A stretch of DNA of 64,000 nucleotides, taken from Candidatus Anstonellaceae archaeon (GTDB lineage: Archaea > Micrarchaeota > Micrarchaeia > Anstonellales > Anstonellaceae). Under the pieces are notes generated by a model. The model ran no database searches and was not told where the DNA came from. It saw nothing but the letters and a program-made list of their open reading frames with translations. The DNA lies in contig JAWAEW010000006.1 in the NCBI GenBank assembly GCA_038891035.1, positions 2,221-66,220 of the forward strand, written 5' to 3'. A program made the translations under genes and the position numbers. Of the stretch, positions 52,244 through 58,087 are shown in pieces. Position 1 is the first letter of the stretch. Each line of letters starts with the position of its first letter.

Positions 52244-53524
52244 TCAGCTTTTCAACTCATAGTAAATTGGAAGCAAATCCGCTACTGGGGCTGGAAGATT
52301 TTCTGCACCGACAAGAGGCACTGCATATTCTGAGAATTTTTTGATTTCAAGAAGGCAGCCTGAGTAAGTGATGAAATCTTTGGGCATTTCACGCTTACCT
52401 GTGCCTACTAGTTGCAATGGGAGGAGTACTGTTGATGTGTCTGAGCCTGGTGCAGTCAGTGCTACGCTGCCTGCCCCAAAACCTTGGATTGTATAGCGGA
52501 CGGCTTCCCGCCCGACTGTCCAAGCATCTAGCGCATCTTGGTTTGAAACCAAAGCAGGAAATGATCTTTGTGGATATCCTAGTGTGGTTGAGCGGACGTC
52601 GGTTTTGAGTGTAGATTTTACCAAATTGACAAGGAAATCTCCTAGAGAAGTCCCTCTGCTTAGGCTGATTCCACCGAAATTGTCTCCTATTACTGTGTCT
52701 CCTTTGTTTTCAAGAACGTATTTCAAAAGTGGGACTCTTTTTTTTGCTTCAGAAGAAACCGTCGTTATGCCTATGCCTTCAGAAACTACTACTAATGCTC
52801 TGCCAAATTTTTCGAATATTTCAGAAACTTTACCAGTAAAGTTATTCACAAAGTACTGAATGCTGAAGTATTCATGTTCTGGAAGGAAAAATGCGTGTGG
52901 GCCGCTTTTTTCATCGTGCTTTGCAAGCGAGGCAGAGGCCGCAAGATAACCTGCATCTTTACCCATGCAAACTACGATCTGCACGCCCCCTATTGAGCGA
53001 TTATCTGCCTCGATTCCTTGGACCACGTGGGCAACGTAAAGTGCTGCACTTCCAAAACCAGGGGTATGGTGATGGCCATTTAAGTCATTGTCAATCGTCT
53101 TTGCAACATGAAAAGTTGAAATCTCATAATTGCATGCGTTAGCAGCCACTTGCAATTGTAAGCAAACACTTGCAGTGTCATCTCCTCCTATCATGTAAAA
53201 GTAGCGTATATCATTTTTCTTCAGAAGCTCAAGCAGCCTTTCTGGCTCGCCCTTGGCCTCATTAAGTTTTCTTCTTGCAGTACCTGAAACGGCGCCTGCT
53301 TGGTTTGCAATTTTGTGTAAAAGAGCGTCGGGCTGGCGTGACAAGTCGTACACTTTTGGAGGGCATTCATCCAAAAGACCTCGAAGGCCAAAGGGAGGAG
53401 AATAAATTCTTTTTACACCCGACTTTTTCAAGTTCAAAACGAGCGAAGAAAAAGTCCTATTCACGACACGGGAAGGGCCACCGCCGAAAGCAACCAGCGC
53501 TCCGCCACTTTCAAGCTGCTTCAT
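52244..53524 (-). CDS. pfp: pyrophosphate-dependent 6-phosphofructokinase (PfkA family)
   Basis: 'MIGGDDTASV' (Asp at the GGDG position) and 'AKTIDNDL' (Lys at the PGTIDND Gly position) are the PPi-specificity determinants; preferred start MKQLESGGALVAFGGG. Confidence 0.75.
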   Translation of the reverse strand: MKQLESGGALVAFGGGPSRVVNRTFSSLVLNLKKSGVKRIYSPPFGLRGLLDECPPKVYDLSRQPDALLHKIANQAGAVSGTARRKLNEAKGEPERLLELLKKNDIRYFYMIGGDDTASVCLQLQVAANACNYEISTFHVAKTIDNDLNGHHHTPGFGSAALYVAHVVQGIEADNRSIGGVQIVVCMGKDAGYLAASASLAKHDEKSGPHAFFLPEHEYFSIQYFVNNFTGKVSEIFEKFGRALVVVSEGIGITTVSSEAKKRVPLLKYVLENKGDTVIGDNFGGISLSRGTSLGDFLVNLVKSTLKTDVRSTTLGYPQRSFPALVSNQDALDAWTVGREAVRYTIQGFGAGSVALTAPGSDTSTVLLPLQLVGTGKREMPKDFITYSGCLLEIKKFSEYAVPLVGAENLPAPVADLLPIYYELKS

Positions 53525-53690
53525 CAGACCACCTTCCAAAATCTGAGTAGATGTGTTTAAAGTATTTGCGCAAAAACCAGGCCGAGTGCCTTGGTTTTGG
53601 CCAGGTAAGCATCCCAACGAAGATATCTTTATAAATTATGCCGACGAAGACACGTCGTGAATCCCATACCTATTTTGGAGGTGTTTGTAG

Positions 53691-53906
53691 ATGGGACAAA
53701 AAGTTGGAACTGAAAAGATACAGCGCGAGGAGGGCTACCTCTATTATATCGGGAAGGATGGATATGTTTGGAAAGCGCCGATGAAACACAACAAGCGCGG
53801 CAAAAAGGCGCGTGTTGGCACTGAAAAGATAACCAAGCAAGAAGGATATATGTACTACCTTGGCAAGGACGGATACGTCTATAAGGCAAAGCTGAAGAAT
53901 GCTTAA
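53691..53906 (+). CDS. small lysine-rich protein made of two tandem ~33-aa repeats
   Basis: GGAGGTG Shine-Dalgarno 7 nt upstream of ATG, TTTATAAATT TATA-like box at ~53660; repeats (V)GTEKI-x-EEGY-x-YY-x-GKDGYV-x-KA. Confidence 0.5.
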   Translation: MGQKVGTEKIQREEGYLYYIGKDGYVWKAPMKHNKRGKKARVGTEKITKQEGYMYYLGKDGYVYKAKLKNA

Positions 53907-53924
53907 ACTGTCCATTTGATTTTT

Positions 53925-53969
53925 GGGCCTGGCTCGGACGTGAAGCTGGGCCCTTCTGTTTTTGTTTCG
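53925..53969 (+). terminator. GC hairpin + T-tract downstream of small repeat-protein gene
   Basis: GGGCC(53925-53929)...GGCCC(53949-53953) stem followed by TTCTGTTTTTGTTTCG. Confidence 0.4.
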
Positions 53970-54003
53970 ATAGGAATTAAAAAAACAAACGAGTAGTTGT
54001 AGC

Positions 54004-56328
54004 ATGGGCTGCAGAGCAGAATATAGCGGAAGCAGGCTGGTGATGGATTGCCCGACCTGCGGGCTTGGACTTTCTACTCCTCAATGCATAAACTCGCATC
54101 TTAGAGTTCTTTCTACTCTTCCTCGACCTTGGCGCACAATGCGCTATGAGGAAGAGATGGTAGTTGACTTGGATGAGGAAAAAAGCGCAATACTGCAAGA
54201 ATATGCAGGCCTTATTAGACAAGTTGAAGCCATAATGCTCAATCCGAAAGTTTATGGTAGGCCTGAGGATGATTATTATTTGCAGCGGAAAAAACTGCTC
54301 AAGGACTTTTATGAGTATATGTTCATGAATCCGTTGGTAGCTGCACAAGTGCTCAAAGAATATAATGAGCCTTATCCTCAAAAGGCAGTTTTTGTAGAGG
54401 GGTATCGTACATTCCAAGCTTGGGTAAATGGGATATTGGATGCCTATACGAAGTCTTCACTATACATTCTTTGCCAAAAGACAGGTGACTTGAGGGCTGC
54501 TTTCCTTGCACTTCTTGGCCTCAAAAGCGTGCTTTTCCTGCAAAACATAATTCTGTCGGTCCCAAAAGACGCAGTTGAAATAGAAGGTCCTGATGCAAAT
54601 TATGATCTTCCTTATGGGCTAAAAGTAAAGATTTATGATCTGCCTTCTGGTGAAGCGAGGCTTTACACAATACACGACCCGGTAATAGAAAACCTTTCCC
54701 CTCAATTGCAGGAGATGCTTAAGAACGCCATACAGGAAGGTATGAAGGAACTGAGGCAGGTTGAAGATTATACAACCTTATTTGACGAAAAAAGTAGAGA
54801 ATATGCGCAACGTTTCATAGACAAGGCTACGCTTGAAAATATCCCTATTACTCAAAAGGAAGCTGTTGCGATGGGAAGGGAGGCAGCATGTTGGGTGGTT
54901 GGTCTTGGCTCGCCTATAGAAAATATGGCCTTGGACAAAGACAACATAACAGATATTTACATCGATGCCGAGAATTCGCCAATATATATTGAACATGCGA
55001 AATTTGGCCTCTGCCACACCCTCTGGAGATACAACAGGGAAATGCTTGAGAATGTCTTCAAAAACATCATCGCATCTGCGCCAGGGGCGCGGAAATTTGA
55101 TAAAAACACTCCTGTGATTGATGTAGTTCTAAGTCGCCTTGCGATGAGGTGCCATCTGCAGCGCCCACCTGCGACCTTTGGCGAGCTTCAAGCTGCTTTG
55201 AGATTGATGAGGGATCAGCCGTTTACTTATCCAATGTACCTTAAGCTCAAATCGATGAGCCCGTTTTTTGCAGGCTATGACGACGTTATGGTTTCGCTTG
55301 GTTGCTCTGAAGCAGTGCTTGGGCTAAAAGGAGTAGGCAAAACCGCATTTACCTCAGCCAAGATTGCAGCAATAGGAACAAAAAAGAGGATATTGCCCAT
55401 TCAAGACATAGAGGAAATTCCTACTCGAGCATATCGAAAAAGAGGGTTCCACATAGGTGCTGTGCAAGTGCAGTCTTCTGAGATAGAGGATGTCGGCAAA
55501 ACACCTGAACTTGACTTGGTTTCGATGACGAATGCGGCTTTGCGTATGGGAGACGCTTGTGTCATAATCAACGAAATACGTTCCAGGCTTGCAATACAGG
55601 GTGTCATCAACATGCTCAATACTCAGCCCGGAATTTTCCTGCTTTATAACTTGCATGCACAGTCCCTTAAAGATGTGCAAGACCGGCTTGAGCTTGTATT
55701 TGGTGTCCCTGCCGCTTCAATGTTTTCAACAGACAGATATACTTTTCTCAAAAAAGTAAGGTTTGGCAGGAAAAGTAGAATATACAGAATGGTCGGATTC
55801 CAATACGAAACGGATATCTCTGAGCATAAATTTGTTCAGGTATTTTTGCTTGACAGAGCTGAAAGCGTAGAAAAGACGCGCCTTAGATGCTTGTTTTTGG
55901 ATATGCCCGAAGCCGAGGCAGAATCGCTTGCTGATGTAGATTTGGGCAAGCTTGCAAAAAATATGAAGATAAAGTTTTTGCCTCCTGCATTGGTCAGAAG
56001 ATCTGATGAAACCGGTCTTTCCCCGCAACAGTATATAATGGAGGCTTTCTTCAAAGGTAAAATGTATTCTCAGATTGCAGAATGTGCGGATAAATACAAC
56101 CATCCACAATTTGTTGAGCTGGATTTTGTATTGAGGTGCAACACTGCTGCAAACAATCTGCTAAGAAAGCTTGAAAGCGAAGAAAATGAAATTGACTGGA
56201 AGGCTGCAGATAAAGAGTGGCAAAGGATATTTGAGCAATTAGTTCAAAAAGAGCTTGCAGAAGCAAAGCTGGAAGAAGAAAAAAAGAAAGGAGGAAAAAG
56301 ACCTAAAGCCGAGACGCAAACTCCTTGA
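54004..56328 (+). CDS. atypical large secretion/pilus-assembly ATPase of the VirB11/FlaI/PilT superfamily with N-terminal Zn-ribbon extension
   Basis: 774 aa; 'ITDIYIDAENSPIYIEHAKFGL' (T2SS-E N-domain), Walker A 'GLKGVGKT', Asp box 'RILPIQDIEEIP', Walker B/His-box region 'AALRMGDACVIINEIRSRLAIQGVINMLNTQPG...LHAQSLKD'; N-term 'CPTCG'; ~300-aa N- and ~170-aa C-extensions. Confidence 0.6.
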   Translation: MGCRAEYSGSRLVMDCPTCGLGLSTPQCINSHLRVLSTLPRPWRTMRYEEEMVVDLDEEKSAILQEYAGLIRQVEAIMLNPKVYGRPEDDYYLQRKKLLKDFYEYMFMNPLVAAQVLKEYNEPYPQKAVFVEGYRTFQAWVNGILDAYTKSSLYILCQKTGDLRAAFLALLGLKSVLFLQNIILSVPKDAVEIEGPDANYDLPYGLKVKIYDLPSGEARLYTIHDPVIENLSPQLQEMLKNAIQEGMKELRQVEDYTTLFDEKSREYAQRFIDKATLENIPITQKEAVAMGREAACWVVGLGSPIENMALDKDNITDIYIDAENSPIYIEHAKFGLCHTLWRYNREMLENVFKNIIASAPGARKFDKNTPVIDVVLSRLAMRCHLQRPPATFGELQAALRLMRDQPFTYPMYLKLKSMSPFFAGYDDVMVSLGCSEAVLGLKGVGKTAFTSAKIAAIGTKKRILPIQDIEEIPTRAYRKRGFHIGAVQVQSSEIEDVGKTPELDLVSMTNAALRMGDACVIINEIRSRLAIQGVINMLNTQPGIFLLYNLHAQSLKDVQDRLELVFGVPAASMFSTDRYTFLKKVRFGRKSRIYRMVGFQYETDISEHKFVQVFLLDRAESVEKTRLRCLFLDMPEAEAESLADVDLGKLAKNMKIKFLPPALVRRSDETGLSPQQYIMEAFFKGKMYSQIAECADKYNHPQFVELDFVLRCNTAANNLLRKLESEENEIDWKAADKEWQRIFEQLVQKELAEAKLEEEKKKGGKRPKAETQTP

Positions 56329-57616
56329 GGAAGTCTTCCAACCTGTCTGCTGGGATTGTTGCACCTGCTGCAATGTTGTGCCCTCCTCCACTTCCGCCAA
56401 CTGCGGCACATGCTTGAGAAAGAACTACTCCTAAGTTAAGTCCTGCCTCCACTAATTCTTTGCTTCCCCGAGTGGAAATTTTTATCATACCGGGGCTTTC
56501 ATCTGCAATTGCAAGAACTGGCTTGCTTTTACCACCTGGGTAAAGCATGCCTGCAATCACTCCAATTATAGTATCTTTTATTGCTCCCCGCCCGTCCAAA
56601 AAGAAAAATTTCCCAAAATCCTGTGTATTCTTTAAAGCAAAGGCAAGGCCTTCTCTTAAGTTTTTCCTGTGCTGTGCAAGCAAAATCTTCGCCTTTTCAT
56701 ACGCATTTTCTTTTGAAAGACATACTGCAACCCCAAGCCCATACTGGCCGTTTCTGCCGCAAGCATTCAATAAGGTTGAGAATTCTGAGGCATCTGCAAG
56801 CTCAGTTTTCTGTGGCTTTTTTGGGAAGATGTAGACTTCTCCTACGAGCTTTTCTGCTGCCTGTGGGGAGATCCTTGCAGAAAGCAAATCTGCAAGCGCG
56901 GATACCAGCTTTTGCTTCTCATTCTCACTCAAATCAGAATAACATCTCCACTCTGAGTTGTCTTTCAGCGGAATATTCAGCTGTGAAAGGAAAGAGGCAC
57001 ATGCTTCTTCATTTCCTGTGAGGCCTGGGAGATAAGGGTCGTCTGCATATGAAAGAAGTTGAATCAATGGTCTGCTGTTTCTTCCAAAAAGCCGCAAGTC
57101 TATTTTGGCTTCTGCCAACCCTGCCTGCTGGGCCTCGTGAAGCATTATACGGTTGAGGCTTTGTAGGGGATATTGGATGTCTCCTACTGCGCCAGTTATG
57201 CCAATCTCTGGCGCTTGTCTGAAAACAAAATAAGCGCATGCGGAGGCTGAAGCTTCGCTTCCGCCGTCAAAACCAAAGAAATGAGGATTTGCTTGAAGAT
57301 GGGCTTTTGATTGGGGCTGGTGGTGGTCGATTATTATGATGTTTGAAGAAAGCTGATCGATAGAAGGTGTGCTACTTCCTAAATCAACAAAAATTAAATT
57401 TGGCTCATTTTTGAGGCTAGAGATTATTTGTTCGTCAAGCTTCTTTACAGTTAGCATTCTGTATTTTGCCTTGCGCAATTCAAACCATGAAGCAACTATT
57501 GAACCGGAAGAAATTCCATCGCAGTCATAATGATGGACTATGAGCGGGTCTTGCATTCTTTCTGCAACTTCCAGTGCTTCACTGCAGCGCTCAAAGAAGG
57601 CATTTTGGTTTTTCAT
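56303..57616 (-). CDS. DHH-family phosphoesterase, archaeal RecJ/GAN-like nuclease
   Basis: DHH motifs 'HHYDCDGISS', 'IIIDHH', DHHA1-type C-terminal domain 'GGGHNIAAG'. Confidence 0.7.
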   Translation of the reverse strand: MKNQNAFFERCSEALEVAERMQDPLIVHHYDCDGISSGSIVASWFELRKAKYRMLTVKKLDEQIISSLKNEPNLIFVDLGSSTPSIDQLSSNIIIIDHHQPQSKAHLQANPHFFGFDGGSEASASACAYFVFRQAPEIGITGAVGDIQYPLQSLNRIMLHEAQQAGLAEAKIDLRLFGRNSRPLIQLLSYADDPYLPGLTGNEEACASFLSQLNIPLKDNSEWRCYSDLSENEKQKLVSALADLLSARISPQAAEKLVGEVYIFPKKPQKTELADASEFSTLLNACGRNGQYGLGVAVCLSKENAYEKAKILLAQHRKNLREGLAFALKNTQDFGKFFFLDGRGAIKDTIIGVIAGMLYPGGKSKPVLAIADESPGMIKISTRGSKELVEAGLNLGVVLSQACAAVGGSGGGHNIAAGATIPADRLEDFLKEFASRL

Positions 57617-57667
57617 ACAGCAAGAAATAGCAGAAGACGTATAAAAGGCATTGTGGAAAACGAAACC

Positions 57668-58087
57668 ATGGAATTTGAGCATGCGTCAGATGTCCAGCAG
57701 AAGGTTGAGGAGATTGTATCTGTTTTGTCTTCAAGCTCAAAAGTAGCTGAATTTAGGCATATTAATCAATTCAGAATAATTTGCATGCGATCCAGAGGTT
57801 CAAAGGCAAATGCTTATGCAAGGATTTGGAACCTGCCTATGATCTGGCAAAAGGCACTTTCGGTTGGAGCATTTTACATAATAGAAGTAATAAGCGATCA
57901 TTATGATTCTCTTGATGAAGAGCAAAAAGAGAAAGTCCTTTTACACGAACTTATGCATATTCCAAAGACATTTTCAGGTGCGCTTCGGCCTCATAATGGC
58001 AAAGTAAAAATTAACCGTCAAACTGTGGAGAAGCTTTATAGGATATATCTAAAAGAAAAAACGGCTGAAGCGGTGGGTTCAAAATGA
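57668..58087 (+). CDS. putative Zn-metallopeptidase (HExxH; SprT/DUF45-like)
   Basis: 'VLLHELMHI' zinc-binding motif in 139-aa protein. Confidence 0.45.
   Translation: MEFEHASDVQQKVEEIVSVLSSSSKVAEFRHINQFRIICMRSRGSKANAYARIWNLPMIWQKALSVGAFYIIEVISDHYDSLDEEQKEKVLLHELMHIPKTFSGALRPHNGKVKINRQTVEKLYRIYLKEKTAEAVGSK

Follow-up and report, generated by a model that had tools for sequence, protein, structure and literature searches.

Sul7d (Sso7d/Sac7d) and Cren7 are small basic chromatin proteins of Crenarchaeota, which are 60-70 aa long, rich in Lys and in beta-structure with exposed aromatic residues, and whose genes are monocistronic, carry strong expression signals and have a lineage-restricted distribution. 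A monocistronic layout with BRE/TATA, a perfect Shine-Dalgarno (SD) site and a terminator is usual for archaeal chromatin-protein genes, and a strong SD site and a small, basic, beta-rich product that exposes aromatic residues are characteristic of ribosomal proteins and single-strand binders. We analysed a gene for a 71-aa protein lying in a 64-kb stretch of DNA, here called the window, and both the protein and its gene resemble Sul7d and Cren7 in the features listed above. Unlike them, the 71-aa protein is an internal tandem duplication, our models of it contain no SH3-like barrel or C-terminal helix, and it is found in DPANN archaea, Methanoregulaceae and Thermoplasmata, groups that have histones as well. 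By analogy, the functional class of Sul7d and Cren7 most likely describes how the 71-aa protein would work, without relatedness between them.

Few DPANN archaea have been cultured, and a function has yet to be assigned to most of the small proteins that they conserve. The 71-aa protein outconserves the translation, replication and secretion proteins with which we compared it in Micrarchaeota, yet it is unnamed, is covered by neither Pfam nor NCBIfam and resembles no structure that our searches could detect.

Coding frame, repeats and predicted fold

The gene (Table 1) encodes MGQKVGTEKIQREEGYLYYIGKDGYVWKAPMKHNKRGKKARVGTEKITKQEGYMYYLGKDGYVYKAKLKNA, a protein of 8.3 kDa with a pI of 9.8 and a net charge of +10, containing 14 Lys, 9 Tyr and 10 Gly. 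An identical protein, with slightly different flanks, is recorded as 'hypothetical protein' in a Candidatus Anstonellaceae archaeon of the Micrarchaeota (MEM4348438.1, QXN37_02610). Synonymous sites were near saturation among 44 ungapped orthologous coding sequences (pS 0.75, pN 0.17), close orthologue pairs gave a pN/pS of 0.12, and the entropies at the three codon positions of the orthologous coding sequences were 0.47, 0.41 and 1.20. Because of this ratio and of the codon-position entropies, the plus frame is coding and under strong purifying selection. The antisense ORFs at 53629-53889 and 53670-54005 were rejected as shadows of the selected plus frame.

Table 1. Features of the 71-aa gene in window coordinates.
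Feature	Coordinates	Strand	Basis or detail
Coding sequence of the 71-aa protein; ATG at 53691, TAA stop at 53904-53906	53691..53906	+	pN/pS 0.12; 328 close homologues, mostly exactly 71 aa
Predicted archaeal promoter: BRE-like purine-rich stretch, then TATA box TTTATAAATT at 53628-53637	53612..53637	+	Sequence
Inferred 5' leader with GGAGGTG at 53677-53683, 7 nt from the ATG	53640..53690	+	SD-like site in 76/80 orthologous loci
Repeat 1 (aa 4-38): short strand, predicted beta-hairpin GYLYYIGKDGYVWKA, basic linker PMKHNKRGK	53700..53804	+	Alignment, AlphaFold
Repeat 2 (aa 41-71): short strand, predicted beta-hairpin GYMYYLGKDGYVYKA, basic tail KLKNA	53811..53903	+	Identity to repeat 1, AlphaFold
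GC-rich hairpin at 53925-53953 (10-bp stem with 7 G-C pairs), then T-tract TTCTGTTTTTGTTT	53925..53967	+	Same-position hairpins and T-runs in related loci

The sequence-only reading had described the protein as a tandem repeat rich in Lys, Tyr and Gly. The repeat is real, since its two copies are 62.5% identical and align with a Smith-Waterman score of 122, against 22 +/- 4.8 for shuffles (z = 20.9). In the Micrarchaeota-type alignment G15, Y18, G21, D23, G24, P30, M31, N34, G37 and K39 are invariant, and the invariant or near-invariant positions span both hairpins and the linker P30-M31-x-x-N34-x-x-G37-x-K39. When mean identities were computed over the same genome pairs, the 71-aa protein exceeded each of the four core proteins used for comparison: 74% vs 55% for rpS6e, 74% vs 63% for aIF2-gamma, 78% vs 50% for RFC-large and 87% vs 77% for SRP54. 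Such near-whole-protein constraint within 8 kDa would fit a wide contact with a conserved macromolecule.

AlphaFold2 run on the Micrarchaeota alignment returned a model with pLDDT 89.8 and pTM 0.71, in which hairpins 16-20/26-30 and 53-57/63-67 are accompanied by short N-terminal bridges. An independent AlphaFold run on the alignment of a sister family from Woesearchaeota (described below) gave pLDDT 87.2 and pTM 0.74, with six strands, three per repeat; the basic linker is of low confidence in the models. The 71-aa protein is thus predicted to be a six-stranded all-beta module made of two homologous three-strand repeats. Foldseek searches of PDB and BFVD with both models found no analogue (best E 0.27, TM-scores up to 0.37), and the modelled module may possibly be a new small fold.

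No significant match to the 71-aa protein or to members of the sister family was found in Pfam, NCBIfam, PADLOC, PHROGs or the PDB sequences, in agreement with the initial impression that the protein matches no recognised family and with no sign that its repeat is a known, unrelated domain. It is a new protein family, probably within the known general kind of small basic nucleic-acid binders. The structural analogy to Sul7d and Cren7 that had been drawn from size and charge did not survive this comparison, and the models gave neither an SH3-like nor a significant WW match in Foldseek. Sul7d (Pfam 7kD_DNA_binding) was rejected on the lack of a Pfam match at E up to 10 and on an hhalign probability of 0.2% with an approximate Sso7d query; its fold is an SH3-like five-strand barrel with a C-terminal helix, against six strands and no helix in our models, and the Foldseek search of the PDB retrieved no Sso7d or Sac7d chain. 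Cren7 was rejected likewise, with no Pfam match, no Foldseek match and an hhalign probability of 0.1% (again with an approximate query).

WW domains are closer in outline, with repeats of about 35 aa, three short antiparallel strands, an aromatic Y-Y-x-G-K-D-G hairpin and, in repeat 1, a Trp followed by a Pro. The tandem-WW structures 2kxq, 8pxw and 9eqk are among the weak Foldseek matches (E >= 0.5, TM about 0.3). Unlike tandem WW domains, the two repeats are predicted as one module and not as independent domains. A WW assignment was rejected: a WW domain has two signature Trp residues and a conserved Pro, Pfam gives no WW match, and the W27...P30 pair is found in repeat 1 alone, with no counterpart in repeat 2 or in the Woesearchaeota family. 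The motif strings and PF27482, a propeller model considered below, occurred in no paper of the searchable literature, and no description of such a DPANN protein or family was found there.

Expression signals, distribution and fusions

The TATA-like box, the GGAGGTG site and the hairpin followed by a T-tract, all noticed when the sequence was first read, are present at the positions given in Table 1, and signals of these kinds recur over 80 orthologous loci, which bears out the claim of a real gene with strong expression signals. Within the window TTTATAAA occurs only 6 times, both strands counted. GGAGGTG is found 6 times as well (both strands), and only the copy in Table 1 precedes a real ORF. 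Just 1 of the 64 long ORFs of the window has an SD of at least 6 nt, and most genes of the window seem to be without a strong SD, start codons having been assigned crudely in both statements.

Among the orthologous loci, which come from species-representative genomes, a strict TATA pattern lies at -75 to -30 in 48 of 80, and in most a TATA-like box stands some 55-70 nt ahead of the ATG, often following a BRE-like element, CGACG..A.A. The leader block CTATTTTGGAGGTG is conserved among the Anstonellaceae-type loci. Downstream, a T5+ run occurs within 40 nt of the stop codon in 70/81 loci, against 24 +/- 3.6 in shuffles, and a GC-rich hairpin with a T-rich tail in 22/81, against 0.9 +/- 0.9. The sequence of the 3' hairpin differs between Anstonellaceae-type and Thermoplasmata loci and its position is kept, and in the window the hairpin with its T-tract is likely a transcription terminator and/or an mRNA-stabilising 3' end. 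From these counts of SD, TATA, T-run and hairpin over the orthologous loci, it follows that the 71-aa gene is an autonomous monocistronic unit whose initiation and 3'-end signals are unusually strong and conserved.

The 328 close homologues, with identities of 60-85%, came from a word-index search. A profile search, run exhaustively, brought in 577 representatives of clusters made at the 50% identity level (E <= 1e-3), and a scan of species genomes located at least 564 loci of the family. The best 80 of these at least 564 loci comprise 57 in Micrarchaeota, 14 in Methanoregula/Methanolinea and 9 in uncultured Thermoplasmata. The ORF turned out to be very strongly conserved in related genomes. 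The sister family consists of 76-83-aa proteins in 1,893 clusters, mostly named Woesearchaeota or Nanoarchaeota, with the consensus MAEKVAKVGVKKE.GYLYFVDK.G.VSRAKMARGGRKKGK...VAK.GVKKESGYLYFVDK.GDVSRAKMARGR, and it is colinear with the 71-aa family (hhalign probability 99.1%).

Within Micrarchaeota the proteins are on average 74% identical; Micrarchaeota sequences share a mean of 73% with those of Methanoregulaceae, 58% with those of Thermoplasmata and about 40% with the Woesearchaeota family. The Methanoregula orthologues lie on contigs of up to 3.17 Mb with RefSeq accessions, all annotated 'hypothetical protein'. In a neighbour-joining tree of 71 columns, built without support values, the Methanoregulaceae sequences nest inside the Micrarchaeota radiation. 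Because of this nesting, and of an identity of 73% vs 40%, the Methanoregulaceae copies were probably acquired by lateral transfer between phyla, possibly between symbiont and host lineages. The tailed-virus contig IMGVR_UViG_3300028399_000010 encodes a stand-alone homologue of 68 aa with two repeats (L081, 1793-1999), whose gene is the second upstream of that for the large terminase subunit (phrog_38, E = 1e-48). A tblastn search of phage and plasmid collections gave no homologue in either. Judging from the Methanoregulaceae and viral copies, the function of the module would be self-contained and transferable.

Among 148 representatives, 94 stand alone as two-repeat proteins, 10 end in an added zinc ribbon and 13 have membrane segments (P0164 has both and is counted in both groups), with an M48 peptidase in one and a YdcK beta-solenoid in two. 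The module is predicted to be cytoplasmic in the single- or multi-pass membrane proteins P0148, P0164, P0179, P0187, P0198, P0204, P0233, P0262 and P0264. A small clade of 3 proteins joins it to an HNH nuclease domain (IscB HNH region E = 2e-6; PHROG HNH E = 1.5e-3), with methyltransferase, MazE and HEPN genes as neighbours; a search for further relatives of this fusion left the total at 3. The repeats come in twos, and multi-module proteins are covered end to end by matches to the two-repeat profile, so that the pair is the structural unit. Per 71 aa, stand-alone members carry 6-10 aromatic residues and a net charge of +10.6 +/- 1.4 (Micrarchaeota type) or +13.2 (Woesearchaeota type). The charge is much lower, at +3 to +8, in fused modules, and those of two zinc-ribbon proteins are acidic (-2 to -4), which argues that the fold is not an obligate polyanion binder.

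Candidate functions of the protein

The 71-aa protein probably binds nucleic acid, because of its charge, the aromatic residues on its hairpins, the constraint over its whole surface, its expression signals, its transferability, the viral copy and the HNH fusion. We tentatively favour, as possible rather than probable, the reading that it is abundant and binds nucleic acid irrespective of sequence, most likely as an accessory DNA-architectural protein. We infer its high abundance, nucleic acid as its ligand, DNA over RNA and the architectural role. For scale, the transcriptome table of Ca. Micrarchaeum harzensis (PMC8975820) gives 125 TPM for the S-layer gene, 17 for L44e and 1-4 for typical genes; synteny with Micrarchaeum loci (RadA, EF-2) did not extend to that genome. 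Small, abundant and strongly basic, the protein would fold as one compact module, bind nucleic acid without sequence specificity and coat or bend genomic DNA as an accessory nucleoid-associated protein. Contact would be made through the conserved aromatic/Lys hairpin faces, which carry the motif E-x-G-Y-L-Y-[YF]-[VI]-[GD]-K-x-G-x-V-x-x-A-x-M, and the linker and tail, flexible and rich in Lys/Arg, would offset the charge of the phosphate backbone.

Several observations count against this architectural reading. No homology ties the 71-aa protein to a fold that binds nucleic acid. Histones and Alba are already present in Micrarchaeota and Woesearchaeota (PMC6136690), so that there is no chromatin gap to fill. 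The membrane, M48 and beta-solenoid fusions would fit a general binding or adaptor module, the position of the gene directly upstream of rpS6e and aIF2-gamma in about 21 of 57 Micrarchaeota loci could point to translation, and the HNH fusion is rare, being found in 3 proteins.

A nucleic-acid-binding architectural protein of this kind would add a new family and fold to the archaeal chromatin proteins, and would offer an 8-kDa, easily expressed target for biochemistry and a possible engineering scaffold, as happened with Sso7d. It would also make the apparent transfer between Micrarchaeota and Methanoregulaceae/Thermoplasmata a marker of genetic exchange between symbionts and candidate hosts. 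With somewhat more reserve, we would entertain a broader version, in which the protein is near-universal in Micrarchaeota, has its sister family across Woesearchaeota/Nanoarchaeota and is the founding member of an unrecognised archaeal chromatin or nucleic-acid-binding class with a new duplicated six-stranded beta fold, under tighter conservation than several core proteins of translation and replication and able to spread into Methanoregulaceae, Thermoplasmata and a virus.

The strongest alternative, which we consider unlikely, is an RNA-binding or ribosome-associated function, as a lineage-specific ribosomal protein, a ribosome-bound factor or a general RNA chaperone that would contact rRNA or mRNA via its aromatic beta-sheet faces and basic loops. 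The commonest gene order in other Micrarchaeota, RFC-large, 71-aa gene, rpS6e, aIF2-gamma, all on the plus strand (about 21-24 of 57 loci), speaks for such a role, as do the better conservation of the 71-aa protein than of rpS6e, its strong SD, its small, basic, beta-rich make-up with aromatic residues and the presence of histones and Alba in these phyla. Even where rpS6e follows, however, the gene keeps its own promoter and T-run/hairpin terminator. Its neighbourhoods differ in Anstonellaceae, Methanoregulaceae, Thermoplasmata and Woesearchaeota; the neighbours in Methanoregula, Methanolinea, Thermoplasmata and Woesearchaeota are functionally unrelated, and the genomic context overall gives no consistent functional partner for the 71-aa gene. 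Transfer between phyla and a viral copy would also be unusual for an integral ribosomal protein.

The same translation-related reading draws on weak local matches to eL33/L35Ae, likewise a small basic beta protein, with which the 71-aa protein shares the motif YLGK..YVYKAK. We rejected this candidate, whose Pfam match reaches 12.2 bits against a cut-off of 27 bits (E = 0.21) and whose PDB match, 7qiw_h, has E = 0.68; the similarity amounts to one 17-column hairpin with an hhalign probability of 9%, and eL33, unlike the 71-aa protein, is not a repeat protein. Foldseek matches to ribosomal proteins were not significant. If the protein were a ribosome component instead, it would indicate lineage-specific ribosome remodelling in DPANN archaea.

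We regard as improbable a protein-protein scaffold, in which propeller-blade-like repeats would assemble into a homo-oligomeric ring or act as a general adaptor, the basic segments being secondary. The model for such a ring is RSL, a two-blade oligomeric lectin which, like the 71-aa protein, is a small tandem two-repeat protein. The repeats also resemble the blades of beta-propellers (PQQ/BamB, Beta-prop_YycP PF27482, DUF5050) in having a hydrophobic-aromatic strand, a tight D/G-K-x-G turn and a second strand. Blade-type matches recur: BamB blades and the PLL propeller lectin were the best in Foldseek, DUF5050 was hit at E of about 0.04-0.15 and PF27482 faintly, a five-repeat protein, P0219, was recovered by the profile search at E = 1.5e-14, and a few JGI homologue records are named 'BamB', a mislabelling, all other database records encountered being 'hypothetical protein'. 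The fusions to membrane anchors, M48 peptidase and beta-solenoids suit an adaptor as well. All of the blade-type matches, however, are faint and below threshold, and the PF27482 tag on two Woesearchaeota members of the sister family was rejected as a family assignment, being one such faint match to 'Beta-prop_YycP'. A propeller closes a ring of four or more four-strand blades, in one chain or by oligomerisation, whereas the chain studied here has two repeats, each of about 37 aa with three strands, and is very basic. The pairing of the repeats and the end-to-end profile matches fit a self-contained two-repeat domain, which AlphaFold gives as a confident compact monomer (pTM 0.71-0.74), and a scaffold would leave the extreme, conserved positive charge of the stand-alone forms unexplained.

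Binding to another polyanion or surface (acidic membrane lipids, polyphosphate or cell-envelope polymers), as a cytoplasmic tether or protectant, is very doubtful, for although the module often sits on the predicted cytoplasmic side of membrane proteins and has weak choline-binding-repeat-like matches (E = 0.04-1.2), these matches are insignificant, the 71-aa protein has no signal peptide or amphipathic helix, the stand-alone form is dominant (94/148 representatives), and the viral and HNH contexts point to DNA.

Other observations at the locus

The loci of the other phyla with 71-aa orthologues are L027, L029, L032, L043, L050, L053, L054, L058-L060, L063, L065 and L072 for Methanoregulaceae, and L066, L067, L070, L071, L074 and L077-L080 for Thermoplasmata. 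One Micrarchaeota MAG, MFD01689.bin.1.58, holds two paralogues on separate contigs (L040 and L073), of which one adjoins rpS6e/aIF2-gamma and the other lies in an unrelated context. Relatives that carry the module in other settings (membrane, zinc ribbon, M48, YdcK, HNH) are P0148, P0164, P0179, P0182, P0209, P0216, P0233 and P0262; P0148, a membrane protein of 886 aa, has up to about 8 repeats on its cytoplasmic side.

Just 3' of the TATA box, at about the expected transcription start, the block GCCGACGAAG (window 53640-53657) is conserved in loci L001-L006, L009, L012 and L016. It contains in the window a 5-bp inverted repeat, CGACG(N6)CGTCG, whose 3' arm is not kept by relatives, and the block is probably a promoter-proximal element and not an RNA hairpin.

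In the window the 71-aa gene has as neighbours the minus-strand genes for phosphofructokinase and SRP54, together with Pus10, a plus-strand CpaF/FlaI-type ATPase of 774 aa and a nuclease of the DHH/DHH-CID (GAN/RecJ-like) kind. A tblastn search restricted to the 64 kb of the window, with approximate queries, found no histone, Alba, MC1 or HU gene. The phosphofructokinase ORF (52244-53617, minus strand) is 457 aa long from a TTG start; gene calls on near-identical contigs give 426 aa, and the longer ORF is probably over-extended, in which case the gene would share an intergenic region of about 170 nt with the divergent 71-aa gene. The ATPase (54004-56328, plus strand), of the CpaF/FlaI/GspE type for secretion or pilus assembly, matches CpaF of the PDB over residues 275-566 (E = 8e-11), has a long Cys-containing N-terminal extension and a faint T2SSE hit as its sole Pfam match, and adjoins the 71-aa gene as a conserved neighbour in Anstonellaceae-type loci. 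Further downstream, amid housekeeping genes, an ORF at 57530-58087 on the plus strand carries a 'putative phage metallopeptidase' domain (PF18894, E = 7e-23).
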